IMG/VR virus record: IMGVR_UViG_3300017785_009958
Length of the DNA stretch: 64,000 bases
Reading direction: 5' to 3' (one strand)
Source: an uncultured virus (IMG/VR IMGVR_UViG_3300017785_009958)
Lineage: Duplodnaviria > Heunggongvirae > Uroviricota > Caudoviricetes
Shown here: piece after piece, positions 9,416-62,222 of the stretch
How positions within the stretch are numbered: the first letter of the stretch is position 1
Layout of the letters: every line of letters starts with the position of its first letter
Notes under the pieces: model-generated
Told to the model about the DNA's origin: nothing
Databases searched by the model: none
Seen by the model: the letters and a program-made list of their open reading frames with translations, nothing else
Position numbers and translations under genes: made by a program

Positions 9416-10485
9416 GTACTGTTAGCCCTTTTATAAAGATCTGTACAATAACGAGAAACGTCATCTTTTTTCTCTATGTCCAGCAAGGTAACGAACTCTT
9501 CAATTGCTTTGCTCATATCAACACCAGATAAGTCGTAAGCTTGCTCTTCATTAACAGTTATGGCATCGTTATATAGCGAATAATCAACCGATAAATTAAA
9601 AGGCTTATGTGCAGATATTTTCTGTAAAAGCAGATCAATACTATCACTTGTAATTTTCTTATCAACTACAAGTTTAATAATATTATTACCTACTGCTGCT
9701 CTTACTTCAGCTGCTGTAAGAGTTTTAAATGTAGTAAGATCGGTTAACGATAATTTCTTATGTTTAGGTGAAAGTTCATTTTCAAAAAACGAATAGCTAA
9801 GATCATTAAAATCTAAGATGTAATATCCTTTGACAGAGCCGGTATCACCAAAATCCATTTCAAAAGGATTACCGACATACAAAATAGTTTTCTTATCATA
9901 CTTTCTTTCATCCCTTAGATGAAAATGACCGGTCATAATTAAATCTGCCTTTGCAAGCAGATCAGAGGTTTTCATACCATGATCGCAGTGCTTATGGCTA
10001 TTCATCTTAAAGCTCTCAATCTCTAAATGCCCAAAAATCACATCAGACTTCTCAACATCTCTTACATCTGCACCCCAAGGTAAAAATGTACATTGCTTAC
10101 CGTAGATTGTATATGTCGCGGGCTCACTTATAATTTGTATATTTTTCCATCCATTAAGAATAGAGAGTGAGTTAATATCAGATCTATCTTTATAAAACGC
10201 GTCGTGATTACCGACGAGAATAACTATATTAAACTCATCCCATAAATTAAGAATTTGATTTACGACATGAATCGTATTTACAGCAATTTCATCACGATAG
10301 TGATATAGATCCCCGAGTATAAAAATGTCTTTTATTTTCTTTTTATTGAGATCGTCACGAAGCCATTCGGCCCATTTAATAGCCGTTTCATGCCAAAAAA
10401 TACTATTCTGATGTACGCCAATATGAAGATCGGCAATACAACAGACTTTATTACTTTTTGTTATAAGTTCTTTTTTATTTTTCAC
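9412..10485 (-). CDS. gp47: Recombination endonuclease nuclease subunit (gp47, Mre11/SbcD-like)
   Basis: DLHIG, LGD, GNHD, GHLE, GHFH metallophosphoesterase motifs; adjacent to gp46. Confidence 0.95.
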   Translation of the reverse strand: MKNKKELITKSNKVCCIADLHIGVHQNSIFWHETAIKWAEWLRDDLNKKKIKDIFILGDLYHYRDEIAVNTIHVVNQILNLWDEFNIVILVGNHDAFYKDRSDINSLSILNGWKNIQIISEPATYTIYGKQCTFLPWGADVRDVEKSDVIFGHLEIESFKMNSHKHCDHGMKTSDLLAKADLIMTGHFHLRDERKYDKKTILYVGNPFEMDFGDTGSVKGYYILDFNDLSYSFFENELSPKHKKLSLTDLTTFKTLTAAEVRAAVGNNIIKLVVDKKITSDSIDLLLQKISAHKPFNLSVDYSLYNDAITVNEEQAYDLSGVDMSKAIEEFVTLLDIEKKDDVSRYCTDLYKRANST

Positions 10486-11078
10486 TCTGTAGTGTTGTAA
10501 TTATCATCTGCAGGTTCAACGTATATATGCGCGCCAGATGCAATATCCGGGTCAAGCATAAGATCGGTATACACTTTATCGCGATATTCATTTAATACTT
10601 CATGATGCTTATTTTCTTTTTTAATACGGTTAATGAAGGCATGAAATGCAATAGTAGTAAAATATGAAAAGGGGCTAAACCCTGTATCAAGTTTAAATTT
10701 TTGATTGCGCAATGCTGAGAACATCTTAACGATTGCATCTCCGATCATATCGTCTTTGTAAGAATAGTTGATAAAATTAGGTGCATAGGATAATCCGTTA
10801 GCAATTTTAGTTAAGCTCTCTCCAAGTTTTTGTGTCACAAAACCAGACTTATAATATGCACGTATCTCTTCTTCAAACTCTTTACCGTTTACATAATGTA
10901 CTTTTTCTTTTGGTTTAAGTTTTCTTCCCGTAGGTGTAACTGTTGGCGGTAAAACAACACCTTTAGAAATAATATTCTTGAGCTCCGGATCGCTCTCAAT
11001 TATTTCCTCTTTTGAAGGTTTAACCTTCTTAGATTTCATTAATTCTTTTGATGGAGTATTTAATTTTTTCTTTTTCAT
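10482..11078 (-). CDS. gp55: Late-transcription sigma factor (gp55); true start may be 11039
   Basis: HYVNGKEF, KIANGLSY.PNFINYSYKDDMIGD, PFSYFTTIAFHAFINRIKKE. Confidence 0.93.
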   Translation of the reverse strand: MKKKKLNTPSKELMKSKKVKPSKEEIIESDPELKNIISKGVVLPPTVTPTGRKLKPKEKVHYVNGKEFEEEIRAYYKSGFVTQKLGESLTKIANGLSYAPNFINYSYKDDMIGDAIVKMFSALRNQKFKLDTGFSPFSYFTTIAFHAFINRIKKENKHHEVLNEYRDKVYTDLMLDPDIASGAHIYVEPADDNYNTTE

Positions 11079-12486
11079 AAAGTGCGCGACGTTTTTCCAT
11101 ATGAGCTAGGCTATATTTGAAATTATCTGCAATGTCGAATATTATAAGCTTATCTTTATCCTTATGCAAGCGAAGACCTCTTCCAATCGATTGAACTATC
11201 TTAATTTTCGCTTTTCCGCCGCATGCAAAAACAATATAATGTAGGTTTTTAATATTAATACCAGTAGAAAATATTTTTGAAATAGCGACAACGACAATGT
11301 CAGTTCTTTTCTCCATAAGCTGTCTAATTTCATCTCTCTCAGCTACTTCGACTTCACCGCGTATAAAATAGCACTGTTTTTCCGGGCATTGTTCTTTTAT
11401 TGCTTTGTATAATAATTCTCCATGCTCAATGTAATCAACCAGAATTAGGGAATTATTTGTAAGCTTGCAAACAATTTTGCTTATAACATTATTTCTAAAC
11501 CCGCTTCTCATTAAAAATCTTTGCTCTTCGCGATAAAGATTTGACGACGATATTACGACATCTTTAAACGGGTCTTCATTATAATTTAGTTCTATGATTT
11601 GCACCTGCACGCTACTTACATAACTTTCTAATCGAAGTTCATAGCTGTTCTTTTCATATATTACAGGGCCGATTTTACCTATAATATTCCACTGATCCAT
11701 TAAGCCCTCAGGCATTGTACCGGTAAAACCAAATCTAAAAGGTGTTTTTATTTTTTTAAGAATTTTGTTTACTTCATTGCCTTTGCGTATTTTATGTACT
11801 TCGTCAACTATTAAGACATCAATTGTTTCAAGCCAAGATAAATCTGTATTCTTGCTTTGTAAGATACCTAAATTTGCTATAGTAACGTTGGCTTCGTTTT
11901 TTAATTCATAACTGCCTGTCCACTTTCTAACAGAAAATGGAACGTTATATGATGAAAAATCTGAAGACGTCTGTTCTACTAGTCCTAAATCCGGTACAAT
12001 ATATAAACAATTAAATTTTGATCCATATAAAAGAAATAATTTTGTAAGTAAAGAAGCAGCAGTAAGTGTCTTTCCGCCTGCTGTAGCAAGTATGATTGTA
12101 CCGCGGCCGATTGATAAAGCTTTTTTAACAATTTCTTCTTGATAATCTCTCAATGGTAGTTTAAGAGGTATCGGGTCGTATGAAAATCTTGTATCAGATT
12201 GAAGGTTTTTAACAGGCATAATAATCTCAAGAAGAGATTCATCTGTCTTTACTTCTCCGACATATTGATTGTTATTGAGATATTTTCTTATTTCAAAGTA
12301 AAGGCCTGGGTCAAATCTGCCTGTTGGTGTTATTGCATAAGTTCTTTGCGGTAAAAATCTTCCGTATCTTTTTCTCATAAAAAAAGCAGCTTCATTTTTA
12401 ACAGAAAATGCTTCTCTTATTTCTTCAAATTTATCACCAGAAATAATACCGACCCCTTTATTAGAGTCAAAAGAAAAATTAATCAT
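11029..12486 (-). CDS. uvsW: UvsW SF2 DNA helicase
   Basis: LRDYQ, ATAGGKT, DEVH, GFTGT, FSTGINIKNLH, QSIGRGLR. Confidence 0.94.
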   Translation of the reverse strand: MINFSFDSNKGVGIISGDKFEEIREAFSVKNEAAFFMRKRYGRFLPQRTYAITPTGRFDPGLYFEIRKYLNNNQYVGEVKTDESLLEIIMPVKNLQSDTRFSYDPIPLKLPLRDYQEEIVKKALSIGRGTIILATAGGKTLTAASLLTKLFLLYGSKFNCLYIVPDLGLVEQTSSDFSSYNVPFSVRKWTGSYELKNEANVTIANLGILQSKNTDLSWLETIDVLIVDEVHKIRKGNEVNKILKKIKTPFRFGFTGTMPEGLMDQWNIIGKIGPVIYEKNSYELRLESYVSSVQVQIIELNYNEDPFKDVVISSSNLYREEQRFLMRSGFRNNVISKIVCKLTNNSLILVDYIEHGELLYKAIKEQCPEKQCYFIRGEVEVAERDEIRQLMEKRTDIVVVAISKIFSTGINIKNLHYIVFACGGKAKIKIVQSIGRGLRLHKDKDKLIIFDIADNFKYSLAHMEKRRALYEKEKIKYSIKRINEI

Positions 12487-12875
12487 GTTGTCTCTAGCTT
12501 AATAATATCAACAAGATTTTTTATATCATAAGATGTCGAGCTCAACGTTTTTTCTGACTTTTCTAGTAGCTCAATGATAAGCTCTAACTCTTTTATTTGT
12601 GTATCAATCCCAATTACTTCACTATGCTTATCTGCAGTACGCTCAACAACTGGTGTAGCTAATTTTACCGGGCTTTGTTCTTGTATTTTATCAACTAATG
12701 TACGTTTTAATAGCTCGCGCTTCTTACGTAACTCATTGATTTGTAATTTATGTCTAATGCATCTACCGGCCCATTTATGCTTAATACCAGGTAGTTTTAA
12801 CTGATAATCTTTGAGAATAAGCTCGTCTATTTTTAAGTCGTTTTCTAGTTCTTTTATGTAATCTTCTAGTAGCAT
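12483..12875 (-). CDS. uvsY: UvsY recombination mediator (start re-called at 12875)
   Basis: 130-aa helical protein directly upstream of uvsW with DLKIDE...LP..KHKW and YDIKNLVD; TTGATT-N16-TATTAT ends 8 nt before ATG 12875. Confidence 0.75.
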   Translation of the reverse strand: MLLEDYIKELENDLKIDELILKDYQLKLPGIKHKWAGRCIRHKLQINELRKKRELLKRTLVDKIQEQSPVKLATPVVERTADKHSEVIGIDTQIKELELIIELLEKSEKTLSSTSYDIKNLVDIIKLETT

Positions 12876-12901
12876 TAACTTAAATAATAGTATACATCTA
12901 T

Positions 12902-13162
12902 ATGAAATCAATAGGTTTATTCGAATCAAAGTTTTGCAAACTTCTTGAAGAAGATAATGTTGCAGGTGGTGTCGGTAGTGCTTTTGGTACCGGTACTTTA
13001 GCCCCTGTAGGTGATTTTGGAAATCAATTTCCATCACAAAATGATGATGCTTACGCGCCAGGTGATGCTAGAGTTCCAAAAATATTAGGCGCTAAAAAGA
13101 AAAAAAAGAAAAAAGATAAGTTCTTAATCCAACGTCGCCCGCTTCCAGGCCTTAGCCTTTAA
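12902..13162 (+). CDS. Small late protein carrying a copy of the major capsid N-arm plus a poly-Lys tail
   Basis: FGNQFPSQNDDAYAPGDARVPKIL matches gp23 FGNQFPSQNDSAYAPNDSRLPKIL; KLLEE leader; KKKKKKK; TAAATA at 12881-12886. Confidence 0.8.
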   Translation: MKSIGLFESKFCKLLEEDNVAGGVGSAFGTGTLAPVGDFGNQFPSQNDDAYAPGDARVPKILGAKKKKKKKDKFLIQRRPLPGLSL

Positions 13163-13184
13163 TAGACAAGAAGCTAAATAAAGT

Positions 13185-13598
13185 ATGGATCTCGGTCATT
13201 GGCTACTTTCAGAAGGTATTCTTTTAAATGAAAATACGTTTGGCTTTATTTATGAAATAACAAATACAGTTACAAGTAAAAAGTATATTGGTAAAAAGCA
13301 GTGTAAATCAAAATTAAAAAGAAAACCATTGAAAGGCAAGAAGAATAAACGTATTGAAATAAAGGAATCAGATTGGAAGGAATATACCAGTTCATCTAAT
13401 GAACTAAATGAAGACATAAGGAAATACGGTAAAGATAAATTCATATTTAAAATTTTACGTGCATGTGGGTCCAAATGGGAATTAGCTTATTATGAAATAA
13501 GAGAACAACTAGAAAAAAACGTTCTACTAAGAGATGACTACTATAATGGTATTATTAATGTACGTATCGGACGTCCACCAAAAAGTTTTCTTGATTAG
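13185..13598 (+). CDS. GIY-YIG-like nuclease domain protein
   Basis: FGFIYEITN...KKYIGKK...SDWKEY.SS...E...YYN; late TAAATA 4 nt upstream. Confidence 0.7.
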   Translation: MDLGHWLLSEGILLNENTFGFIYEITNTVTSKKYIGKKQCKSKLKRKPLKGKKNKRIEIKESDWKEYTSSSNELNEDIRKYGKDKFIFKILRACGSKWELAYYEIREQLEKNVLLRDDYYNGIINVRIGRPPKSFLD

Positions 13599-14650: not shown

Positions 14651-15820
14651 ATGGATAGTCAAAAGAAATACAGACCTCTAGATGAGGTTTATTTAGCTGA
14701 ATCTTTTGCAAAGCATGTCCCGCTGCCGCCAAGATCAAAAATAATATTACACGAAACAGGTACAGTACTCGTTCAAAAAGATCCGCCACAAGGTGAAGTG
14801 GAAGAATACAATGTAGGTGATGAGAAATTAAAAAAAGTTAAAAATATACTGGCAAAATCTGAAGAAAGAGAAGCGGGTATTGTGGATCTTATTAATAAAC
14901 TCAATATTCCTCCTGCTCATTCTAAGATAATTGCGGAAAGAATATTCGAATCTGAAAATCAAGAGCAAATTATTACTTATATAAACAATAGAGATATACG
15001 TATTGAAGATTTAGATGGTAAGAATATTATTGACATTTATACACAGAAAATAATAGATAGAGCTTTTGTTGAATGGCTTTTAGGGTATGAATGGGCAGCT
15101 ACTCCAAATGTAGGCGCAGGAGAAGCATTTATCTCTATAATGGTTGCAGGTGCGAGAAAAACTAGCAGTAAAGAAAAGGGTGACGTTAAAATTGGTGAAG
15201 AAGAGTTAGAAGTTAAAGGCGATGGTGCACGCTTAAGAGGTCAAAAAGGATTTGGTTCTGGTATAGAGGTAGGTAATTTATGGTCAACATTGTTAAACGA
15301 TAAGGCTAAACAATACAATCTAACTCTCAATATACCTGAAGGTGGTAGTAATTTTTATAATTTGGTTAAAAATGGTTATGCATTTGATACTATAGGTCAG
15401 CAAATTATTGCAAATTCACAAGGTGGTTTTACTTTAAAAGACTTATTACAAGGCTGGAAAGACGGACTTCGAAAATTGTATCTTAATTCAAGTATACAGG
15501 ATTATGATTTTATCGATTCGAGCTATGAAAACGGTATACTTAATAAGGTTAAATTTAATAACGGATTAGCGTTATTTTCGCTCAACTTTTACTTTAACGT
15601 CGAACAAATAGAGAAATTATTACTTGGTAAATTTAAAATCGCTCAGGCTGCAAGAGAAAAAACTAAGACACTCGAGTATAAGCGCTACGGCTCTGCAGTT
15701 GTAATTACACGGCAAGACATAGCTTCCGGAAACGTACTTAATAAAGCATCATATACACTACCGAGCTTTGGTGCAACGGCAGGTGTACAGGGTGGTTCAA
15801 CAGCATTACATATAAGATGA
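14651..15820 (+). CDS. Hypothetical protein with possible PD-(D/E)xK nuclease core
   Basis: VGAGEAF...KGDVKIGEEELEVKG resembles the E..D..ExK restriction-endonuclease motif. Confidence 0.45.
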   Translation: MDSQKKYRPLDEVYLAESFAKHVPLPPRSKIILHETGTVLVQKDPPQGEVEEYNVGDEKLKKVKNILAKSEEREAGIVDLINKLNIPPAHSKIIAERIFESENQEQIITYINNRDIRIEDLDGKNIIDIYTQKIIDRAFVEWLLGYEWAATPNVGAGEAFISIMVAGARKTSSKEKGDVKIGEEELEVKGDGARLRGQKGFGSGIEVGNLWSTLLNDKAKQYNLTLNIPEGGSNFYNLVKNGYAFDTIGQQIIANSQGGFTLKDLLQGWKDGLRKLYLNSSIQDYDFIDSSYENGILNKVKFNNGLALFSLNFYFNVEQIEKLLLGKFKIAQAAREKTKTLEYKRYGSAVVITRQDIASGNVLNKASYTLPSFGATAGVQGGSTALHIR

Positions 15821-17037
15821 TAACGTTTAAACAATTTCTTCTCGAGGGTGGAGTAGCTGGTCATATGGCCCATCCTTATGACCTTCCTAGTGTTAATACA
15901 GGAAGAGATCTTATTAACATTTTTAATAAGATAGCTACTAGCTTAGTTAAAAAGCCTTCAGTAGTAAAAATAGATGGTGTAAATGCCTCTATTAAGCTTA
16001 TTACAAATAAAGAGGGTAATAAAGAGTTTGCTATGGATAGAGGTTCAAATAAGCTAGAAGATGTAGAAGGTGTTACTATCGATAAGCTCAGCTCACGCTT
16101 TCCAGAAGGTCATGGTATGAGAGAAACAGGTAAAGTTGTATTAGAAATTTTTAATCAAGCTTTGACGTCAATAGAAAAAGAGCTTATACAATTAAAGATG
16201 TGGGATAATAATCGCATTCTCTTTAATATGGAATTTGTTAAAGGCGCAACTAACGTAGTTGGGTATGCAAATAACTTTCTTGCTATTCATGGATTAAATG
16301 AAATAGTTGAAGTTAAAAGCCCTGTTCGGGGAAGTATGAGTCGCGCATCGCGTGAAATACCTTACGATAGAAAAGCTTTACAATCATTAATAGAGAAAGT
16401 TAAGCCAATTGCTGAAAAATATAATTTTGATGTGGTGAATGAGTTTATTGTTACACTAGCAAATAAGATTGATTTTAATCCAGAATTAAATTCAAAATTT
16501 TCTGTAAGTTACGATTCGCGTAATATACAAACAAAACCTTTAAAAGATTGGCTTAGTAAAGCAAAGAATCCTCGTGCTGATAAGATTAAACTCGCATCAG
16601 GAAAATCTATTAGTGCAGTTAGTTTAGAAAATTATAAGAACATGTCTGCTGGTGTACCTTTAGATCATTATCTTGGTAAGAATACAAAAGATTATCAAAA
16701 AGCAATTGATGGTGCAGTATTAATACACACAACCATTTTAATGGGTCAAAAGATAAAAGATACTGCAACATCGGAATTAGGTAATGTAGGTACACAAGAG
16801 GGTATTGTTATAAGAGATTCAAGTATATCTGTTAATCCACTGAAAATAACGGGTAACTTCTTTACAGGTAAAGAAGCAGGACGTATTAAACAGCTTAAAA
16901 CGCAAGAAGAAGAGGAAGGTATAAGGGGACAGCTTTCAAATACTAATAAAGTATTAAATTATAAAAACTATCAAACTAACCCACCTTATGGAAAAGAAGG
17001 TGCACGGTTAACGTTAACACCGGGAATGAGTCTATGA
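15817..17037 (+). CDS. RNA/DNA-ligase-fold nucleotidyltransferase-like protein (possibly DUF6267-like) with internal-protein leader
   Basis: Motif I VKIDG, NMEFV, motif IV EGIVIR, motif V LKI; N-terminus MITFKQFLLE then GHMAHPYD. Confidence 0.6.
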   Translation: MITFKQFLLEGGVAGHMAHPYDLPSVNTGRDLINIFNKIATSLVKKPSVVKIDGVNASIKLITNKEGNKEFAMDRGSNKLEDVEGVTIDKLSSRFPEGHGMRETGKVVLEIFNQALTSIEKELIQLKMWDNNRILFNMEFVKGATNVVGYANNFLAIHGLNEIVEVKSPVRGSMSRASREIPYDRKALQSLIEKVKPIAEKYNFDVVNEFIVTLANKIDFNPELNSKFSVSYDSRNIQTKPLKDWLSKAKNPRADKIKLASGKSISAVSLENYKNMSAGVPLDHYLGKNTKDYQKAIDGAVLIHTTILMGQKIKDTATSELGNVGTQEGIVIRDSSISVNPLKITGNFFTGKEAGRIKQLKTQEEEEGIRGQLSNTNKVLNYKNYQTNPPYGKEGARLTLTPGMSL

Positions 17038-17687
17038 AGTTTGATGCATTAGTAGAGCAGATATTACAGCCACAGAAGAATAATCTTATTGTTATTTTTT
17101 CTGGACGGTTTCAACCTTTCCACGTTGGTCATAAAAAACTTTATGATGCTGCTAAGCAAAAATTTCCGGGTGCCGACTTTTATATAGCCACAGCAGATAC
17201 GATAGAAAATAGCGCTAAAGAGCCTGATCGTTATCCTTTTAATTTTATAGAAAAAAAAGAAATTATCAAAGCTACGGGTATACCAGAGAATGAAATAATG
17301 CTTACAAAGCAGCCTTATAAGCCAATTGAGATATTAAAAAATTATGATCAAAATGTTGCAAAAGTAATTTATATTGTAGGCGAGAAAGATATGAAAGAAG
17401 ATCCAAGATTTTCTTTTAAACCGAAAAAAGATGGTTCTGCTCCCTACTTTCAACCGTTTAAAAGTTTAAATGAGCTAGAACCCTTTAAAGAACAAGGCGG
17501 TCATGGTTATATCTATGCACCAGGTACAATACAGTTTAATCTCGGCGGTAAGAATATTACTAGTGCAACAGAGCTGAGAAATATGTATAAAGCAGCTGAT
17601 GAAGCGACAAAGAAGCAATACGTAAAAGACGTCTTAGGTAAATTTGATCAAAAAGTTTACAATCTGTTTAACGCAAAATTGCGTTAG
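17034..17687 (+). CDS. HIGH-family nucleotidyltransferase (cytidylyltransferase/NMNAT-like)
   Basis: FSGRFQPFHVGH, VGEKD, TSATELR; start overlaps stop of upstream gene (ATGA). Confidence 0.85.
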   Translation: MKFDALVEQILQPQKNNLIVIFSGRFQPFHVGHKKLYDAAKQKFPGADFYIATADTIENSAKEPDRYPFNFIEKKEIIKATGIPENEIMLTKQPYKPIEILKNYDQNVAKVIYIVGEKDMKEDPRFSFKPKKDGSAPYFQPFKSLNELEPFKEQGGHGYIYAPGTIQFNLGGKNITSATELRNMYKAADEATKKQYVKDVLGKFDQKVYNLFNAKLR

Positions 17688-18265
17688 TTTTTATTCTCAA
17701 GTAAAACGATTGTTTCAAGTAATACTTTTTCGAGTGTTTCTCTCGATTCTTTTCTCAATACTGTCCTTAGCTGGCTTACTAATGAATCACCGCCATTTGC
17801 AATTGCTTTATAAAGATCTTCTTCGTTATTTTCTTCAACACCCATCATTTCCATCTGACTACGCGCTGCTTCATAATCCTTATAATCAAAAACTGATTCA
17901 AGATCATCATGTGCATTAGTAAGCTTGCTCAGCACCCAAGCTTCAACATTACCACCCTTACGTATAATATCGTGAAGCATTGCTGAAAGTTTAAAAATTC
18001 TAAATAATAACTGCTTGGACATATACTCATTCTTCTCTGTCTCTTCCATTCCGTCTTGTGGTTTCATTCCACCGACAATACCACCGCAATCTTCACAGTC
18101 TTCATTCTTACTGCCACATTTTCTTACAGGTGCTTTAAAGCTTTGTATCTTAGAAGGGGTGGGGGTTACGCTTTGATTATCAGCTTCCGGACCAAGACCA
18201 AGATTTTCTTTGACGATCTTTTGGTTGTAAATTTCGTTTAAGAGATGAAAGTCCTTATGGAACAT
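17684..18265 (-). CDS. Hypothetical late protein
   Basis: TAAATA 5 nt upstream (18271-18276); KDFHLLNEIY leader; EAWVLSKLT segment. Confidence 0.6.
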   Translation of the reverse strand: MFHKDFHLLNEIYNQKIVKENLGLGPEADNQSVTPTPSKIQSFKAPVRKCGSKNEDCEDCGGIVGGMKPQDGMEETEKNEYMSKQLLFRIFKLSAMLHDIIRKGGNVEAWVLSKLTNAHDDLESVFDYKDYEAARSQMEMMGVEENNEEDLYKAIANGGDSLVSQLRTVLRKESRETLEKVLLETIVLLENKN

Positions 18266-18407: not shown

Positions 18408-18815
18408 ATGGAAGTGTTTAAAGAATTTTACAATAAGCCTGTACTCGGTATTGATGAAGTTATAGATGTCGAGGGGTTAGGCAAGGTAAGAGCAAAAGTC
18501 GATAGTGGCAATGAAGCTTACAATGTTATTCATGGTCTAGATATTTCACAAGAAGGTGAAAACGTCTCTTTTACAACTGTAGGTGGAAAAAGAATGACAG
18601 CACCCAGGGATGGTGAAATAAAGATTCATATTGGCAGCGGTGTTAAAGAAGACAGACCCACAGTTAAGCTTAATATAAAAATTGGCGATAAGGCTTATAA
18701 AGGTGTAACGTTTAGTATTGCAGATCGATCTGAGAATCAAGATCCAATCTTGGTCGGTGAACCTTTTCTTAAACAATTGAATGCAGTGATTGATGTGAAC
18801 AAGGAAGCAAAATAA
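18408..18815 (+). CDS. Retropepsin-like protease (RimK-associated 'ATP-dependent Zn protease' family)
   Basis: AKVDSGN catalytic motif, RPTVKL, F.IADRS, PILVG; late TAAATA 5 nt upstream. Confidence 0.75.
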   Translation: MEVFKEFYNKPVLGIDEVIDVEGLGKVRAKVDSGNEAYNVIHGLDISQEGENVSFTTVGGKRMTAPRDGEIKIHIGSGVKEDRPTVKLNIKIGDKAYKGVTFSIADRSENQDPILVGEPFLKQLNAVIDVNKEAK

Positions 18816-19770: not shown

Positions 19771-20412
19771 TTAATTCTGCGCAAACTCAACAAACTTGTA
19801 AAACTCAGCTCGCGAATTATCATTATTATCCAAGAACGCTCCAGACATTCTAGCTGTACGCATCGTTGAATCATGTCTAATACCACGATTAGAGCAACAA
19901 GTATGATTAGCTTCAATCATTACGGCTACCCCATTATTCTTTTCACATACTAGATCAATATGCGCATGAATTTGCATAGTAAGGTTTTCCTGTACCTGCG
20001 GACGGCGAGCAAACCAATCAACAATACGATTGAGCTTGCTTAGACCAATAACTTTACCTTCCTTCGAAGGAATATATGCAACATGAGCTACACCAGTAAA
20101 AGGTGCATGATGATGTGAACAAAGCGAAGTCAATTTAATATTATTTTGACAAACCATGCCATCATATTGATCAATATTATCAAAAGCTGTAATCTTCGGT
20201 GGCTTACTATAACAACCCCATGCGAAGTCTTCTACGAAGGCCTTAGCCACGCGATGTGGGGTATTATCGCTGTTAGGATCATTTCTCCAATCATAACCTA
20301 ATGCATCCATGTAAGCTTCATAAGCCTTAGATGCCCTTTCAATTATTTGTTCTCTTTCTTCTTGTGTATGAGGATGATTATGATTAGCGAAAGCGAGTTT
20401 TACTTTAGACAT
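19771..20412 (-). CDS. folE: GTP cyclohydrolase I FolE
   Basis: TPHRVAK, SLCSHH, GLSKLNR, RRPQVQE, H.C...RG. Confidence 0.95.
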   Translation of the reverse strand: MSKVKLAFANHNHPHTQEEREQIIERASKAYEAYMDALGYDWRNDPNSDNTPHRVAKAFVEDFAWGCYSKPPKITAFDNIDQYDGMVCQNNIKLTSLCSHHHAPFTGVAHVAYIPSKEGKVIGLSKLNRIVDWFARRPQVQENLTMQIHAHIDLVCEKNNGVAVMIEANHTCCSNRGIRHDSTMRTARMSGAFLDNNDNSRAEFYKFVEFAQN

Positions 20413-20460: not shown

Positions 20461-20898
20461 GTGAAGTATAATGACGTAATATTAGAAAGTCTGAAGAAGA
20501 CAGCTTTAAAACGTATTCGCATTAAAGTAGATCCCGCACAAGTAAGTGCTGAAGCTGACTTTTCTAAAGTAGATGGATATGAAGGTTATGTCTTAGAAGA
20601 AGGCAAAGGTCATTTAAAAATATTAGTACTTTCACCAGAAATGAGTATACATGATATACCGGAAGAGTTTATTGAAGCGCTAGCAGCAGAAGCAGACTAC
20701 GATTCATTTTGCTGTTTTAAAGAATATCTAATTAAGCATTTACTTAAAGATGGTAAAGTAATGAACGATCCGATAATTATACAAATTAATAATACAAACT
20801 GCTTAAGTGATATTGAAGTTATTATTCGTCAATGCGGGTATACTGGAGATAAACTAGCAGACTTATATAGAGGATTTTTAACAGATGAAGAAGCTTGA
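20461..20898 (+). CDS. Hypothetical late protein (GTG start re-called at 20461)
   Basis: TAAATA 20450-20455, 5 nt before in-frame GTG; leader MKYNDVILES; YEGYVLEE. Confidence 0.6.
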   Translation: MKYNDVILESLKKTALKRIRIKVDPAQVSAEADFSKVDGYEGYVLEEGKGHLKILVLSPEMSIHDIPEEFIEALAAEADYDSFCCFKEYLIKHLLKDGKVMNDPIIIQINNTNCLSDIEVIIRQCGYTGDKLADLYRGFLTDEEA

Positions 20899-21463
20899 AT
20901 TCAACGATCTTGTAAATGCTATTCTAAATGAAGAAAATTTTCTTCAGAAGTTAGGTGGCATGGCTAAAACTGCCATAAGCGGAACTGCAGGTTTAGCAGC
21001 TTCAACTCTTGAAGCACCAAAAAAAATACATACAGCTGTTACCGGTAAAGGTCAACTTGCAAAGGGGCTACGTGGCATACAACAAAAACTTGCATCTAAT
21101 AAGCCAGAAGATCTAAAAAGACAGAGACCAACAAAAACTACAACAGATACAAAGATAGAGGATTTTGATAAAGATATTATTAAAACTTTGCTTACAAAAG
21201 CTAAAACCCCAGCACAGCAAACAACCTCTGGAAGTACACAAGCTACCGGCGGAGTGACAGGTGGTACAGCAGCTGCAGGATCAACTGCAGGCACCGCTAC
21301 TAGTACTACAGCAGCTCCTGTCGCGCAAACAGCTATGACCGTTGGCCAACGTGAGCCTAAAGAAGGTGATGTATTTAACTTAGTCGGTAAATACGGTCGT
21401 ATTAAAAAATACCAAGTTAAAAAGGTAGATGGAAACGTTGTAAGTGCAGCACACATAATATAA
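20885..21463 (+). CDS. Hypothetical late protein with Thr/Ala/Gly-rich linker
   Basis: Leader MKKLEFNDLVNAILNEE; low-complexity TGG/TAA stretch. Confidence 0.6.
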   Translation: MKKLEFNDLVNAILNEENFLQKLGGMAKTAISGTAGLAASTLEAPKKIHTAVTGKGQLAKGLRGIQQKLASNKPEDLKRQRPTKTTTDTKIEDFDKDIIKTLLTKAKTPAQQTTSGSTQATGGVTGGTAAAGSTAGTATSTTAAPVAQTAMTVGQREPKEGDVFNLVGKYGRIKKYQVKKVDGNVVSAAHII

Positions 21464-21755: not shown

Positions 21756-22418
21756 ATGAAATACGAGAGTACAAAGATAATTGAATTAGGTAGCTGTGCA
21801 TTTAGACAATGGAAAGCTGATAGTCATTGCAAATTTATACATGGATATAGATTAGTAGCTAAATTTTGGTTTGCATGTAATTATTTAGATGAAAAAAATT
21901 GGGTAGTAGATTTTGGTGGGTTAAAGGGTCTTAAGCAAGTTCTAGAGAAACAATTTGATCATACATTATGTATTGCAGCAGATGATCCTTTGCTTGAAGT
22001 GTTTAAACAGCTACATACAACCGGTGGATGTGATTTGAGAGTTATGTCTAAAGGTGTCGGAATTGAAAGAACCGCAGAATGGTGTTTTGATGTAGCTGAT
22101 GGACATGTAAGAGGCATTACAAATAATAGATGCTGGGTCGAAAAGGTAGAAGTATGGGAACATGATAAAAATTCTGCTATTGTTTCTTATAGTACTACAG
22201 CTGAACCTCAACAATCTGGTGAGACGATTGCAACAACAATACAAGCACCAATAAATCAAGTTAGAGACTTTTTAGAGGATGTTGCAGAAGAGACGGGTGT
22301 GAATGTTTCAAATATTCTCAAAAATGTACCTCCAGCAGAGCCTCAGGCTGCACGTGTAGGTAATAAGATTACAACAGGTTATTCTAATTTATTTGGCGGT
22401 ACTAGCTGGGGTCAGTAA
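21756..22418 (+). CDS. queD: 6-carboxytetrahydropterin synthase QueD with C-terminal extension (start re-called at 21756)
   Basis: SHCKFIHGY, WVVDFG, FDHT, VEVWE; TTGATA-N17-TATAAT 6 nt before ATG. Confidence 0.88.
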   Translation: MKYESTKIIELGSCAFRQWKADSHCKFIHGYRLVAKFWFACNYLDEKNWVVDFGGLKGLKQVLEKQFDHTLCIAADDPLLEVFKQLHTTGGCDLRVMSKGVGIERTAEWCFDVADGHVRGITNNRCWVEKVEVWEHDKNSAIVSYSTTAEPQQSGETIATTIQAPINQVRDFLEDVAEETGVNVSNILKNVPPAEPQAARVGNKITTGYSNLFGGTSWGQ

Positions 22419-24302: not shown

Positions 24303-25043
24303 ATGAGCGACCAGACAATATTTCTAAGCGATGATAAACTCTTCTATACACTAGAGGGCGAAGGCGAATACGTAGGCCATCCTTCTGTGTTTATGCGCCT
24401 CTCAATGTGTAACTTAACATGCAAAGGCTTTGCATCTGCAGATTCACCTAACGGTTGTGATAGTTTTATTAGCTGGTCGGTAAAAAATAGAATGACGTTT
24501 GATGAGATCTTTGAGTATATGTCACAAAACAGGTATAACTGCTATCTAAAAGACGGCGCTATTTGGAAAATTACTGGCGGTGAACCGCTTATTCAACAAA
24601 ACAAGCTTCTAGAGTTAGTTAAAGCCTTTAAAGATCGATATGGATTTATTCCGAAAATTGATTTTGAAACAAACGCAACAATATTACCGGCAGCAGAATG
24701 GAGAGAGAAATATAACGCAACTTTTACTACATCACCCAAGCTGAGTAATAACGGTGATCCAGTTGAAAAAAGATATAAGCCTGAAGTATTAAAATGGCAT
24801 GCGCAAAACAAGTCAGGGTTTAAGTTTGTAGTTAATGGTGAGGATGAAGTTAGGGAAATATTGGAAAAATATGTATATGATTGTTTAATACCCATTGACC
24901 GTATTTGGCTTATGCCTTGTTGTGGCAGTAGGGATGAACATACCGAAAAATGCCCTATTGTTGCTGATTTATGCAAAAAATATAATTTTAAGTTTAGTCC
25001 GAGATTACAGCTTGTAATTTGGAACAAAGCTCTTAAAGTATAA
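24303..25043 (+). CDS. queE: 7-carboxy-7-deazaguanine synthase QueE (radical SAM)
   Basis: FYTLEGEG...F.R...CNLTC...CD, ITGGEP, ETN, SPKL, FKFVV, PRLQ. Confidence 0.92.
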   Translation: MSDQTIFLSDDKLFYTLEGEGEYVGHPSVFMRLSMCNLTCKGFASADSPNGCDSFISWSVKNRMTFDEIFEYMSQNRYNCYLKDGAIWKITGGEPLIQQNKLLELVKAFKDRYGFIPKIDFETNATILPAAEWREKYNATFTTSPKLSNNGDPVEKRYKPEVLKWHAQNKSGFKFVVNGEDEVREILEKYVYDCLIPIDRIWLMPCCGSRDEHTEKCPIVADLCKKYNFKFSPRLQLVIWNKALKV

Positions 25044-41726: not shown

Positions 41727-42713
41727 ATGGCTGTATATTATCCATCTTTTGATAATTACAGACGCGCACAAGTTCGTCAAAAACAACTCTTACACACTGA
41801 TTATAAAACAGTTATACAAGAGGGCATCGGTGTAGGAGCTATTCCAGCAGTAAATACTTCACCTACACCAACTCCCACCCAGACAATAACTCCTACATTA
41901 ACCCCTTCGGTAACTATTACGCAAACTAATACGCCTTCCACTACACCATCAGTTACACCTACAGAAACTCCAACAAGCACACCATCAGTTACACCTACAA
42001 CAACTCAAACGCCTACACCTTCAGTAACAGAGACACCTACATCAACACCGACGCAGACGCTGACCCAAACGCCTACGCCTTCAGTAACGAAAACGCCTAC
42101 TATAACACCGACACAAACGCACACAGTGACACCGACAGTAACACAAACGCACACAGTGACACCGACAGTAACACCAACACCAACAGTGACACCAAATCTT
42201 GTAACAATATTTTATTATTCCGATTCTACAATATCTTCCAGCATGGATACTACATTGACAGACTCGAGTCGTAATATTAATAAAACTTTGATTGCAGTTA
42301 ATATTGGCAGCGTAGTAACTAGTATTGGTACTGCTTTCGCTAATTGTACAGAGCTCACTGACATTATTATTCCTAGCAATGTGACGAGTATTGGTTATGC
42401 TGCATTTCAAGGCTGTACCGGTCTTACTAGTGTTACTATTCCTAGCAGCGTGACGGCTATTGGAGATTACATGTTTTTTTATTGCACTAACTTAGTTAGT
42501 GTATATTTCTTAGGCAATGCTCCTACTGGGGGATTTGGAGCGTTTGAAGGTACAGCGTGTACAGTGTATTATTGTTCAGATAAAGCTAACTTTACCAATC
42601 CTTTCTTAGACCGACCTGCGGTAGCTATTACATGTGGTAATAATACACGCACACCTACCCCGACACCCACTGCAACACCAACACCTACACAGACTATTAC
42701 ACCTTCAATTTGA
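41727..42713 (+). CDS. Late protein with Thr/Pro mucin-like repeats and BspA-type LRR domain
   Basis: Long TPT/TVT tract; [35 protein letters not shown]_5 repeats; VYFLGNAP cap; TAAATA 6 nt upstream. Confidence 0.8.
42111..42170 (+). repeat. Exact 30-bp tandem duplication inside the Thr/Pro tract
   Basis: acacaaacgcacacagtgacaccgacagta occurs twice (42111-42140, 42141-42170). Confidence 0.9.
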
Positions 42714-44375: not shown

Positions 44376-45047
44376 ATGGCTTTACGTCTATTAGTCGAAA
44401 CACCGGCTCCGGAAGAGCAATTTGAATATATACTAGAAGAAAAAAATTCTAAAGAGCCAGCACGTCTTTGTATTCAAGGACCTTACATGGTCTGTAATGA
44501 AGTAAATAAAAATCAAAGAATTTATGAGAAGTCAGATATGGAGCGCGAAGTTAATCGTTACATTAAAGAGATGGTTAATTCTAAGCGCGCCATGGGTGAA
44601 TTGAATCACCCTACATCTGCTGAAGTTAATCTTGAAAGAGCTTGTCATATAGTAACCAATCTAAAGTTAGAAGGTAATTATGTTATCGGTAAGTCGCAAG
44701 TGCTCTCTACACCGATGGGACAAATTGTTCGCTCTCTTATTAATGACGGAGTTAAGGTTGGTATGTCAAGCCGCGCTCTTGGTAAGCTAAACGAAGAAGC
44801 TGGTGGTGTTAATCGCGTTACCGACATGCGCCTTATTGCTGTTGATTGTGTTGCAGATCCGTCGTGCCCCAAGGCGTTTGTTAACGGTATTCTCGAAAGT
44901 AAGCAGTATATACTCGCTGCCGATGGCCAGTTAGAAGAAGTATTTGAGCGTTTTGAGAATTCACTTAAAAATTTACCTGGGAAAGAAGTACAAGCATATC
45001 TCAAAGAGCAAATTCTTTCTTTCTTTAAGCATTTAAAGGCTAACTAA
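44376..45047 (+). CDS. gp21: Prohead core protease (gp21)
   Basis: N.N.RIY, RAMGELNHP, TPMG.I, GMSSRALG, D.VADPS...AFVNGILE. Confidence 0.95.
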   Translation: MALRLLVETPAPEEQFEYILEEKNSKEPARLCIQGPYMVCNEVNKNQRIYEKSDMEREVNRYIKEMVNSKRAMGELNHPTSAEVNLERACHIVTNLKLEGNYVIGKSQVLSTPMGQIVRSLINDGVKVGMSSRALGKLNEEAGGVNRVTDMRLIAVDCVADPSCPKAFVNGILESKQYILAADGQLEEVFERFENSLKNLPGKEVQAYLKEQILSFFKHLKAN

Positions 45048-46237: not shown

Positions 46238-47734
46238 ATGTCAAAACAAATTCGTCCTACACAGGCTTACATCGATGAGTCTCGCGCGAAAGTATTGCTC
46301 GAAAAATGGGGTCCAGTATTGGATTACTCTTCGAACAATGTTGCCGCGATTGAAGATGATCACACTCGTTTGAACACCGCCATCCTTTTGGAAAACCAAG
46401 AGAAGTGGTGTTTCGAAGCTAGCAACGTCGCTGGTGGAACCCCCGGAGTATTCAGCAATGGCCAAATCAATGCTGGTGCCTTCGGTAATCAGTTCCCTTC
46501 CCAGAATGACAGCGCTTATGCTCCTAACGATTCGCGTCTTCCGAAGATTCTAATCCCGATGATCCGCCGTACGTTCCCTGAGTTGATCACTAACGAAATC
46601 GTTGGTGTTCAGCCCATGAGCGGTCCTGTAGGTCTCGCTTTTGCTCTACGTTATAAGTACGAAGGTACTGCTCTCGGTGCTACTAATGCAAAAGGTCTTG
46701 ATGGCTCTCTAGCCTCAGGAGCTCTCGCTGGTGGTCCTCAGAGTCAGTCCGACGGTGCCGAATTAGGTTACCAATACCTCGATTCACGCTTTACTGGTGT
46801 TTCTTCTGCTGCCCTCTCGGGTAACAGTTTCTTCTCCGTAAAAGCTCAGGATCAAGGTGTTGCTCAGTTGCTAGCCAACTTTGAGTTAACCTCAAACATT
46901 CCCCAGGTCGTAGTTAGCTTCGAAAAGACAGCCGTTGAGGCTGGTACTCGTAGGCTCGCCGCCCGCTGGTCTGTTGAACTCGAGCAGGATCTTAAGAACA
47001 TGAACGGCATTGATATCGATACCGAACTCACCAACGCTATGTCGTATGAGTTGCAGGCCGAAATCGACCGTGAAATGATCATTCGTATGATCCAGACAGC
47101 CCTAAACGCTGGCTTAGGAACAGGCTTCTCAGTCTGGTCCCCTGCCTCCGCAGACGGCCGTTGGCTCGTTGAGCGCAATCGCGACTTCTATCAGAGACTA
47201 ATTGTTGAAGCTAACAGAATCGCTGTCCGTAACCGCCGTGGTTCGGCAAATTTCATTGTGGCAACACCTCGTGTGTGCGCCATTCTTGAGATGCTGCCCG
47301 AATTCCAGTGGGTTCCGGTCCAGGGTAATGTTAACACACAACCCGTTGGCGTCGCCAAGGTAGGTTCACTTGCTGGTCGTTTTAACGTATACCGCGATAC
47401 ACGTACAGAAGCACAGGCTGAAGCTAACGCCGGAGGAAACTTCGGCGGTAACGGTGGGTTCCCCGCCGGTACAACACGCACAACCCGTCTCGAGTACGCT
47501 CTCCTTGGTTACAAGGGTCCGGAATTCTACGACACTGGTATCATCTATTGTCCGTATATTCCGGTAATGGTTCAGAGAACTATTGGTCCTAATGATTTTG
47601 CTCCTCGTGTTGGTCTATTAACCCGTTATGGCGTTGTAGATAACATCTTCGGTGCAAATCTTTATTACCACGTAATTATCTTGACCGGTCTCGGTGTTGC
47701 GTTCCAGCCTGGAACACAATCAGTCTACTTCTAA
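46238..47734 (+). CDS. gp23: Major capsid protein (gp23)
   Basis: LLEKW.PVL, ILLENQ, LIPMIRR, VGVQPMSGP.GLAFALRY, EQDLK, EIDRE, YCPYIP, F.PRVG..TRYG. Confidence 0.97.
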   Translation: MSKQIRPTQAYIDESRAKVLLEKWGPVLDYSSNNVAAIEDDHTRLNTAILLENQEKWCFEASNVAGGTPGVFSNGQINAGAFGNQFPSQNDSAYAPNDSRLPKILIPMIRRTFPELITNEIVGVQPMSGPVGLAFALRYKYEGTALGATNAKGLDGSLASGALAGGPQSQSDGAELGYQYLDSRFTGVSSAALSGNSFFSVKAQDQGVAQLLANFELTSNIPQVVVSFEKTAVEAGTRRLAARWSVELEQDLKNMNGIDIDTELTNAMSYELQAEIDREMIIRMIQTALNAGLGTGFSVWSPASADGRWLVERNRDFYQRLIVEANRIAVRNRRGSANFIVATPRVCAILEMLPEFQWVPVQGNVNTQPVGVAKVGSLAGRFNVYRDTRTEAQAEANAGGNFGGNGGFPAGTTRTTRLEYALLGYKGPEFYDTGIIYCPYIPVMVQRTIGPNDFAPRVGLLTRYGVVDNIFGANLYYHVIILTGLGVAFQPGTQSVYF

Positions 47735-48257: not shown

Positions 48258-49178
48258 TTATTGCCGTACAGTCTTCGGAAAATACTTAAACTTATCCCAC
48301 ATAGCATGATTCTGTTTTAATAGCTCTTGGCTATTAGCTCTAATAGGATTAATGTCAATACCGCCTCGTCTAACATATAGGCATGATACCATCAGTTCTT
48401 CAGGTTTAACTAAATCATATAACCGTTTGTATATAGTCTCACAAATCTCTTCATGAAAATGACATTCATCTCTAAATGAGACAATGTACTGTAATAACGA
48501 GGTTTGGTTAAGCTGATAAGGCCCTTTATAATGAATATAAACATCCCCCCAATCCGGTTGAGATGTGACCCTGCAATTACTCTTTAATAGGGCTGAATGA
48601 AAGCGTTGTACTTTATTTGAGTCACCTTCTGTCCAACCGAGCAAAGAAGGATCTTCCTTATAACCGCGAGATTTAATTGACGTAACGTCTATATTATTTT
48701 CCAAAGTCGGATAGTCAGCGGTGGCAAATAAAGGCGGATAATACATCGCATCATCAATAGCTTTTGTAAGCTTAACACAGACTCTAACTTCTGTTTCTAG
48801 TAGTTTAGATAAATCATTTTCCATGACTGCTTCAAGCTGCTGTAATACACTAATAATATTGCCTTGATATGTCTCCATATTAAACGAATTCATATAGAGC
48901 TTAATAGACTTTGATTCAACGATATATTTGTTAGTGGCCGGATATACAACCTTAGCAATAGCAGCAATAGGCATACCATCTTGTGTTAAGCAAGATACTT
49001 CATAAGCATTCCAAATATCATAGCCACAAAACGGAGGATTATCATCAGAAATATCTAAATGCTTTCTATTGTTCTGCCTTGGCTCACGAACCAAAAGAGA
49101 AGGATCATATGTGCATTTGTACCCAGTTATTCTACCAAGATGCTTTGATATGTTACTGTTATCTAATTGCGTATTCAT
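48258..49178 (-). CDS. queF: NADPH-dependent preQ0 reductase QueF (bimodular type)
   Basis: D.WNAYE, QueF motif VESKSIKLY.NSF, catalytic KSNCRVTSQPDW, FHEE, RRGGIDINP. Confidence 0.93.
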   Translation of the reverse strand: MNTQLDNSNISKHLGRITGYKCTYDPSLLVREPRQNNRKHLDISDDNPPFCGYDIWNAYEVSCLTQDGMPIAAIAKVVYPATNKYIVESKSIKLYMNSFNMETYQGNIISVLQQLEAVMENDLSKLLETEVRVCVKLTKAIDDAMYYPPLFATADYPTLENNIDVTSIKSRGYKEDPSLLGWTEGDSNKVQRFHSALLKSNCRVTSQPDWGDVYIHYKGPYQLNQTSLLQYIVSFRDECHFHEEICETIYKRLYDLVKPEELMVSCLYVRRGGIDINPIRANSQELLKQNHAMWDKFKYFPKTVRQ

Positions 49179-60837: not shown

Positions 60838-62028
60838 ATGGCAGATACAATTACAAAAATTTTAATTAGACAGGGAACAGATGTACAGCGACGTACAGCG
60901 GATTTAACAGGTGTTGTTTTTAGTAGTGGTGAGCCAGGCTATTGCGTTGATACAAAGCGACTATTTGTCGGCGACGGAAGTACACCTGGAGGCTTTGCTA
61001 TCGGTATTCAGAATCTTGGCTCCGTAGGTTCTCTTTACGGTAGCTGGCAAAATGGATTTTCTTTTGATGCAATAACACAGTTTAACAACAGAGGTGCTTT
61101 TGTTGGAGATATTATCTATGATAGAGATACGCGTGGATTATATTCACTAACTAGCGTTACTACATTTCCACCACTAACAACAGATATAGTTAAATATGAT
61201 TTTGCTACATTAATCAATAATCAGCAGTTTGTATATGATGAAAATGATGCGCTTAATATTAGGAACGGCGGTATCGGTAACAATCAGCTAAGCCTCAGCA
61301 TTGTTGACGGTGTAACTTTATTCAAGCCCGCCTATAGTTCACCAATTACTATTAAACAAGGTGGAGTTGATAATACAAGACTTGCTTTTGTACCGCCCAA
61401 TACTCTTAAGGGTAATAATTCGTTTTTTGATGCTTATCCTCAAGATTTAGATATTGGGTCAGGATGTGTCGTTGGTAGAACTAATACCTCCCAGCTCACT
61501 GCATTCCCTTTTAGCGTCATTCTTTCTCAAGCAACATTTAACTATACCAACGGTATAATTGTTGATCAAGCTGCAACACCGCCGGTCTTTAAGCTGGATG
61601 AAAATTATTTTACTATTGGTGGTAATAGTATTACATTGCGCAAGGCAACAACAGTAAGTCAGGCGTTCACAGTTAATAATAATGCTACTGTTAACGGCAC
61701 ATTTCGCTGTACTGGTGATATCGTTGCTTACTATGCGCCTTCTGATATAAATTTAAAAGAAGACTTCAAACGAATTGAATCGCCTTTACAGAGAATACTT
61801 AACATCACAGGATATAGCTTCACCTGGAGAAAGGGAATACAAAATAGCGACATTCTTGTTGGTAGAGATTATGGCGTGATTGCACAAGAAGTAGAGAAAG
61901 AGCTTCCAGAGGTTGTAGCCACACGTGAAGATGGAACCAAGTCGGTAAGTTATATAAAGTTAATACCTTTGTTAATTGAAAGCATTAAAGAGCTTAAGAA
62001 AGAGATTGACTCTTTAAAAAGTAAATGA
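60838..62028 (+). CDS. Tail fibre/spike with C-terminal peptidase S74 chaperone
   Basis: N-terminal KILIRQG...GEPGY..DTKRLFVGDG; C-terminal SD.NLK...G.IAQEVE..LPEVV...V.Y.KLIPLLIESIKEL. Confidence 0.8.
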   Translation: MADTITKILIRQGTDVQRRTADLTGVVFSSGEPGYCVDTKRLFVGDGSTPGGFAIGIQNLGSVGSLYGSWQNGFSFDAITQFNNRGAFVGDIIYDRDTRGLYSLTSVTTFPPLTTDIVKYDFATLINNQQFVYDENDALNIRNGGIGNNQLSLSIVDGVTLFKPAYSSPITIKQGGVDNTRLAFVPPNTLKGNNSFFDAYPQDLDIGSGCVVGRTNTSQLTAFPFSVILSQATFNYTNGIIVDQAATPPVFKLDENYFTIGGNSITLRKATTVSQAFTVNNNATVNGTFRCTGDIVAYYAPSDINLKEDFKRIESPLQRILNITGYSFTWRKGIQNSDILVGRDYGVIAQEVEKELPEVVATREDGTKSVSYIKLIPLLIESIKELKKEIDSLKSK

Positions 62029-62222
62029 AGTTCGAAGAAACAATAAAAAAACTTCTGGAGGGGTTTGTTGAATTCCGTCAATCGCAAGCAGCTCCAAGTA
62101 CTGGGCCAGATCAGGGCATGACGTCAGGCGATCAACAAAATACATTTCCCAGTAAGATGGAAACGTTGCAATTAAAATTACCTAAGAAAAAAAAGAAGAA
62201 AAAAATTAACGAACGTTCTTAA
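62025..62222 (+). CDS. Small basic late protein with leader and poly-Lys tail (resembles 12902-13162)
   Basis: MKFEETIKKLLEG...GDQQNTFPSK...LPKKKKKKK. Confidence 0.6.
   Translation: MKFEETIKKLLEGFVEFRQSQAAPSTGPDQGMTSGDQQNTFPSKMETLQLKLPKKKKKKKINERS

Follow-up and report, generated by a model that had tools for sequence, protein, structure and literature searches.

Why a T4-like phage should carry a small gene that repeats the start of its own capsid protein is the question raised by an 86-aa open reading frame at positions 12902..13162 (+ strand) of the 64,000-nucleotide stretch of DNA analysed here (the window). The window comes from the genome of a T4-like phage and encodes gp23, gp21, portal, gp13, gp55, uvsW and uvsY. 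Its major capsid protein gp23 (46238..47734, + strand, 498 aa) was identified by PF07068 (E 4e-88) and PHROG 138; no counterpart among 2,578 matching phage records exceeded 33% identity to it, which marks the clade as uncultured. A preliminary description of this DNA had read the small protein as a free copy of the gp23 N-terminal arm fused to lysines that mimics the arm once cleaved. The translations of both ORFs were as given there and the arm copy was confirmed as real, while the interpretation as a whole was partly supported.

The small protein consists of a leader, an arm copy and a basic tail. Residues 1-17 (12902..12952, + strand) form a predicted helical leader ending in LLEE, a putative prohead-targeting propeptide with a gp21 site; AlphaFold placed a helix at residues 6-17 with low confidence and predicted no globular fold for the protein (pTM 0.24). 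Residues 18-62 (12953..13087, + strand, core 13010-13087) copy the N-terminus of the phage's own mature gp23 as a stand-alone stretch following Glu. The copied arm is gp23 residues 61-105 (46418..46552, + strand), which align to the T4 N-fist/N-arm region by an RR...VQPM anchor. Residues 65-79 (13094..13138, + strand) hold seven lysines (65-71) and then QRR, a basic tail that takes the place of the gp23 (M)xRR helix, in this phage MIRR. The lysines had been reported at the outset and the 15 residues that follow them, QRR included, had been left out. Also missed were the internal-protein-type leader and the late-promoter-like motif described below.

The likeness to gp23 was quantified by BLASTP, which aligned small protein residues 8-62 with gp23 54-105 at 31/55 identities (E 1e-17 for the pair). 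Across the core, G37-L62, 21 of 26 residues were identical, and counting from F39 reproduced the original figure of 20/24. The two genes use different codons at 16 of the 21 identical core residues, in line with the synonymous differences first claimed, and the shared Glu ahead of the arm was present in both proteins. When the gp23 arm was compared with the 325 ORFs of the window the 86-aa ORF scored 146, with the runner-up at 49 and 20 shuffles at 48 or below. The 86-aa protein had no Pfam match to an HK97-fold body and by that criterion is not a gp23/gp24 paralogue, and searches of Pfam, PHROGs, PDB and the ESM Atlas returned nothing named for it.

Orthologues in relatives, a check named beforehand in the preliminary description, were found. 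The homologue search yielded 60 homologues among 62 candidates, and a profile built from these 60 found 319 clusters at 50% identity, with no gp23 among the 147 new profile matches listed. The gp21 protease cleaves after hydrophobic-x-Glu, and this pattern occurred within residues 9-22 in 52/61 homologues; a K/R run of at least three residues followed the core in 57/61. Some members were longer: 33 of 147 arm-copy representatives exceeded 125 aa, with the module fused to other domains (P0068, P0069, P0092, P0127, P0191 and others), and 15 contained an ExEH motif. The 85 IMG/VR loci recovered, which include near-duplicates, comprised 20 copies of gene 23 and 65 of the small gene. The locus was constant, with uvsY (in the window at 12483..12875, - strand, PHROG 231) as divergent neighbour in 64/65 small-gene loci and a GIY-YIG gene (here SegE-type, 13185..13598, + strand, PF19835) following in 60/65. 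The GIY-YIG neighbour was also tried as a locus marker in cultured phages and failed in all five checked.

The small gene is a conserved gene under purifying selection. Comparison with the two closest informative relatives yielded dN/dS values of 0.18 and 0.06, and over 435 pairs of 30 sequences the 19-codon arm core gave pS 0.73 and pN 0.10, the non-neutral pattern that had been asked of it. Synonymous sites between the small gene and gp23 of the same phage were saturated (pS 1.02 for cognate and 0.93 for non-cognate comparisons, 7 pairs), which ruled out recent gene conversion with gene 23 and upheld the early claim that the match is kept at the protein level rather than by recent duplication. 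These values bear directly on the explanation that the gene is a relic, or a repeatedly refreshed duplicate, of the 5' end of gene 23, in which the arm-like part is functionless, only the leader and basic tail matter and the product is a generic DNA-neutralising internal peptide. Such an origin would suit the drift away from the cognate arm seen in G032, G034, S-PM2 and P-SSM2 and the dispensability of the gene in screens (both below), but it is largely refuted by the selection on the core and by the absence of any excess DNA-level likeness to the cognate gene 23, and we consider it very improbable.

To the promoter side, a T4 late-promoter-like motif, TAAATAATA, was located at 12881..12889 (+ strand), 21 nt before the start codon, and from the T4 late consensus we take it to be a putative gp55 promoter. 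Ten of its 15 copies in the window lay 5-30 nt ahead of an ATG (0.33 expected), and it also precedes the gp21, gp13 and gp5-like genes. The late sigma factor gp55 itself (10482..11078, - strand, PHROG 234 E 2e-26) would be the reader of the motif, and the small protein would be synthesised late. TAAATA was present within 40 nt upstream in 41 of 49 distinct homologues, in spacers that are AT-rich, and the 26-nt spacer that holds the motif in the window also serves the divergent uvsY. Freshwater metatranscriptome contigs covered most of the ORF in three of four runs (12906-13170, 12909-13195 and 12925-13091) and left it uncovered in the fourth; as these contigs were retrieved with the same stretch and indicate neither strand nor level, the support they give is weak.

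Searching 50,697 phage records with the window protein by tblastn gave four matches, which is chance level, so that cultured relatives could be reached only by self-scan. In this procedure each genome's gp23 arm was scored against all of its own ORFs with 20 shuffles as the control. A match other than gp23 exceeded all 20 shuffles in five of the 12 genomes scanned (the window, its complete relative G009, T4, S-SM2 and Syn9), and none did so in C48C1, S-PM2, HTVC008M, phiM12, Cr30, P-SSM2 or CBA120. In CBA120, orf007 (L309 1117-1338) encodes 73 aa; its leader resembles those of internal proteins, and its register-like alignment with the gp23 arm scored below the shuffles. We note it as a lead for the Ackermannviridae.

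Gene 61.1 was the best of 1004 T4 ORFs for the T4 arm, scoring 70 against a shuffle maximum of 55. Its product (NP_049649.1, 54 aa, PHROG 1823, with a long form in PHROG 2086) is annotated as hypothetical; T4 gp23 58-94 was its sole PDB match below E 0.01, and the PDB search returned no chain of gp61.1 itself. With E values up to 1 allowed, 1,483 of the 50,697 phage records contained a gp61.1 match, which in a few cases was gene 23 or 24. In all seven Straboviridae examined (T4 and six others) the gp61.1-type protein aligned to its own gp23 free of gaps from the cleavage Glu to Gly-Pro and then continued in lysines; four of the seven were long forms with an added N-terminal domain. The leader MKT[FY]xEF begins only four T4 ORFs, namely ipI, ipII, ipIII and 61.1. 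The design is not unique to the window phage, a correction to the preliminary description: T4 gp61.1 and its relatives have it. An HHalign comparison of the window family with the 61.1 set (93% probability, E 3e-7, resting partly on Gly- and Lys-rich stretches) suggests common descent, and the PHROG 1823 and 2086 models did not match the window protein. T4 inh, gp67 and gp68 were considered as arm copies and rejected on inspection. The long-form N-terminal domain (PHROG 2086/18642; L270 671-1150, L267 1174-1629, L271 644-1132) was also seen without an arm copy in HTVC008M (114371) and C48C1 (71069).

Cyanophage-like genomes have a gene of the arm-copy build two places upstream of primase. In Syn9 it encodes gp190, a close copy of that phage's arm, whose sequence is quite different (score 103 against 47). 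Matches were weak in phiM12 (0/500 pairwise shuffles reaching the score), HTVC008M (3/500), S-SM2 SSM2_167 (2/500) and P-SSM2 (6/500), and the corresponding S-PM2 gene gave no arm match, 386/500 shuffles reaching its score. Searching with the P-SSM2 arm returned nothing beyond gene 23, at a single place in each of 332 records, and the start of Syn9 gp190 gave no match, likely through the low-complexity filter. S-SM2 also has a 142-aa protein between gp16 and gp17 (SSM2_108, L192 5377-5805) that starts with a near-exact copy of the S-SM2 arm, giving this phage two arm-copy genes.

Whether each small protein follows its own gp23 was assessed at two scales. In a 20-by-20 matrix, with groups assigned by us (6 from the window clade, 7 Straboviridae and 7 cyanophage-like), 19 of 20 small proteins scored highest on an arm of their own group and the cognate arm ranked first for 7 of 20; SSM2_108 had entered the matrix after being picked by the scan itself, and the PX29 arm was incomplete. 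Among seven close pairs the core identity was 16.0 of 19 residues for cognate and 15.9 for non-cognate comparisons. The block GNQFPSQND was found in both genes in 9 of 15 genomes, in neither in 4 and in gp23 only in 2 (G032 and G034), whose small proteins have lost the block while their gp23 retains it. As the cognate gp23 was no closer in protein or in DNA, these data indicate shared constraint, without recent copying and without a strain-level lock. Co-variation with the cognate gp23, as anticipated by the preliminary description, thus stood up between lineages and not at the fine scale or in two of the 15 clade pairs; judged from the sequences compared, it is lineage-level rather than strain-level.

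Tracking of gp23 is also what would be required of an anti-defence decoy, a peptide injected or present in the cytoplasm that titrates a host sensor or protease of the gp23 N-terminus. According to the available part of PMC3012670, T4 internal proteins bearing the same leader as T4 61.1 act in counter-defence; 61.1 is an early gene, dispensable in laboratory strains, in the neighbourhood of dmd and spackle. The design, however, spans lineages with unrelated arms and very different hosts, so that a decoy would need a sensor of each arm, and the window clade carries a late-type motif. The end of the copy presumably also lies close to the start of the Gol peptide, the part of T4 gp23 that activates Lit, and we counted this against a decoy. 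We regard this explanation as improbable; if true, it would direct attention to host sensors recognising the N-terminus of the mature capsid protein.

A role in the head was considered against what is described for T4, in sources available to us in part. The gp21 protease removes 65 residues from gp23 and short leaders from internal proteins (PMC9958956), and such leaders target T4 proteins to the core (PMC3012670, PMC5694885); lysines of the internal proteins contact DNA (PMC3012670). The arm is disordered and inside before expansion and is then externalised, clamping four subunits (PMC9546572). Around the portal, five subunits have disordered N-fists, and contact with the portal whisker is made by Met98 of the arm (PMC7136217).

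By analogy, a late-made small protein would be brought into the prohead core by its helical leader, as T4 internal proteins are and as the T4 61.1 leader suggests, and gp21 (44376..45047, + strand, PHROG 207 E 9e-59), the putative processing enzyme, would cut it after Glu at 16/17 as it does gp23. The freed peptide would have the N-terminus and sequence of the gp23* arm and could fold alike on binding. It may then fill N-arm/N-fist sites on gp23 left without an arm of their own, of which the five at the portal are the simplest candidates; another possibility is sites that open for a time while the head expands. Since only one Gp23-family gene is present in the complete genome of G009, gp23 probably forms the pentamers as well, which would leave the portal as the sole permanent gap. 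The arm terminates on the inside of the shell, so the basic tail, standing where gp23 has its MIRR helix, would be turned towards the packaged DNA. The role would be accessory, in sealing or timing rather than essential assembly, since 61.1 is dispensable in laboratory screens. In the parts of those studies available, T4 61.1 was 'Not Fit' in CRISPRi-ART (PMC11879866) and bas37_0146, a 61.1 orthologue by position only, was non-essential with 14/14 TA sites hit (PMC13716836). That the product is a minor head protein of the gp61.1 design, prohead-targeted, cleaved by gp21 and occupying gp23 N-arm sites with its tail on DNA, we judge to have an even chance of being correct. Weighing against it are the early transcript class of T4 61.1 and its dispensability, the silence of the T4 structural papers cited below on any such chain, the loose fit to the cognate arm within lineages and in G032 and G034, and the self-scans in which 7 of 12 genomes stayed within the shuffle range. 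The larger proposal, of a T4-superfamily virion component whose free arm copy sits at portal-vertex sites, anchors DNA and co-evolves with gp23 across three groups (Straboviridae, cyanophage-like phages and the uncultured window clade), is a possibility that we hold tentatively.

The same leader could instead serve a modulator on the core side, in which the arm copy binds partners of the gp23 N-terminal region (scaffold gp22 or gp21) and tunes head size or maturation timing, never entering the finished lattice. The T4 head-length mutations A66D, A94V and G97S fall within the copied region and were taken by their authors to indicate core contact, in the part of PMC9546572 available. Core-side action would account for the loose fine-scale co-variation and for the absence of reported density: no extra chain is mentioned in the available parts of the T4 portal-vertex paper (PMC7136217), the 2026 neck paper (PMC12929587) or the 2026 T4 virion paper (PMC12929629), and 61.1 does not appear in the main text of the last. 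The gap-free match in length to the folded N-fist in 7/7 Straboviridae instead suggests that an ordered, lattice-bound conformation has been kept, and the propeptide has no counterpart in the copy, which starts at the cleavage site. We think a core modulator unlikely.

Several other features of the window were recorded. A second, 65-aa ORF with a leader, a Gly-rich stretch and a lysine run (62025..62222, + strand) had relatives in 8/20 records and matched the arm-copy family by HHalign (91.7%, E 8e-7); it is possibly a distant, diverged paralogue. The F...LLE helix of the small protein was also found in other window ORFs, and those with an F...LxE leader (20-925, 15817-17037, 17684-18265, 18408-18815 and 20885-21463) are candidate internal head proteins. 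A Thr-Pro-rich ORF with BspA-type leucine-rich repeats (41727-42713, + strand), between portal and gp13 and behind a late-type motif, is a candidate virion decoration. GTP cyclohydrolase I and QueF genes (19771-20412 and 48258-49178) together with ORFs that by eye resemble queC, queD and queE (909-1658, 21756-22418 and 24303-25043) are consistent with a 7-deazaguanine pathway. G009 has adjacent DUF1549/DUF1553 and DUF1501 genes (86864-89895; L260 8064-11092), families typical of Planctomycetota and Verrucomicrobiota and a possible host clue.

Full-text literature searches returned no description of arm mimicry, in a coverage that excludes most subscription journals and older T4 reviews, and found gp61.1 in two annotation tables only. 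No virion proteome naming the small protein was found in the same literature, with the Syn9 and S-PM2 virion proteomes outside coverage. The available part of the Milano paper describes other linker proteins, and Y02A in PMC10853763 was rejected as evidence on 61.1, being a TifA alignment entry. The likeness does show in database labels ('major capsid domain-containing', 'putative capsid component' and, for PHROG 696, 'major head protein'), and the arm copy explains the mislabelling of such small genes as 'major head protein'. The proposal offers a testable function for a gene that is conserved but unassigned in the most thoroughly studied phage, and would make gp61.1 the fourth T4 internal protein with such a leader. 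It also suggests a general means of serving binding sites that stay vacant at interruptions of a capsid lattice. T4 itself has a gene built this way, which makes the idea open to bench testing.

The arm-copy family is wider than first thought and is best read as a variant of the leader-bearing head proteins, with the capsid's own arm as cargo. T4 gp61.1 shares with the window protein a leader, the Glu, the copy of its own gp23 arm with the same end point and the lysine tail, and the arm sequence of each tracks the gp23 of its own phage. They differ in setting. T4 61.1 precedes primase gene 61, lacks TATAAATA upstream and is listed among early transcripts, with no class given for the protein, in the available part of PMC9697503, whereas the window gene carries a late-type motif and lies between uvsY and the GIY-YIG gene rather than upstream of primase, which in the complete G009 is 25 kb away. 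The extra N-terminal domain of the long gp61.1 forms was not found in the window or G009. Syn9 gp190 (PHROG 696), SSM2_167 (PHROG 3286) and SSM2_108 share the Glu, an arm-like stretch and a basic run; unlike the window gene, cyanophage genes are often fused to further domains, and their arm match is strong in Syn9 and SSM2_108, weak in SSM2_167, P-SSM2 and HTVC008M and none in S-PM2. T4 IPI, IPII and IPIII have a short leader removed by gp21, a basic cargo and a non-essential role, a make-up that the window protein would share, and their leader motif is common to T4 61.1; the window leader FESKFCKLLEE does not literally match MKT[FY]xEF. IPI* is a folded inhibitor, whereas the window cargo is predicted to be non-globular and copies the arm of the capsid protein itself. 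With the T4 gp23* N-fist/N-arm (residues 66-98), an inter-capsomer clamp in the expanded head, the window protein shares sequence and start point, but it is a free peptide lacking the HK97 body, with a basic tail where the capsid protein has the MIRR helix.
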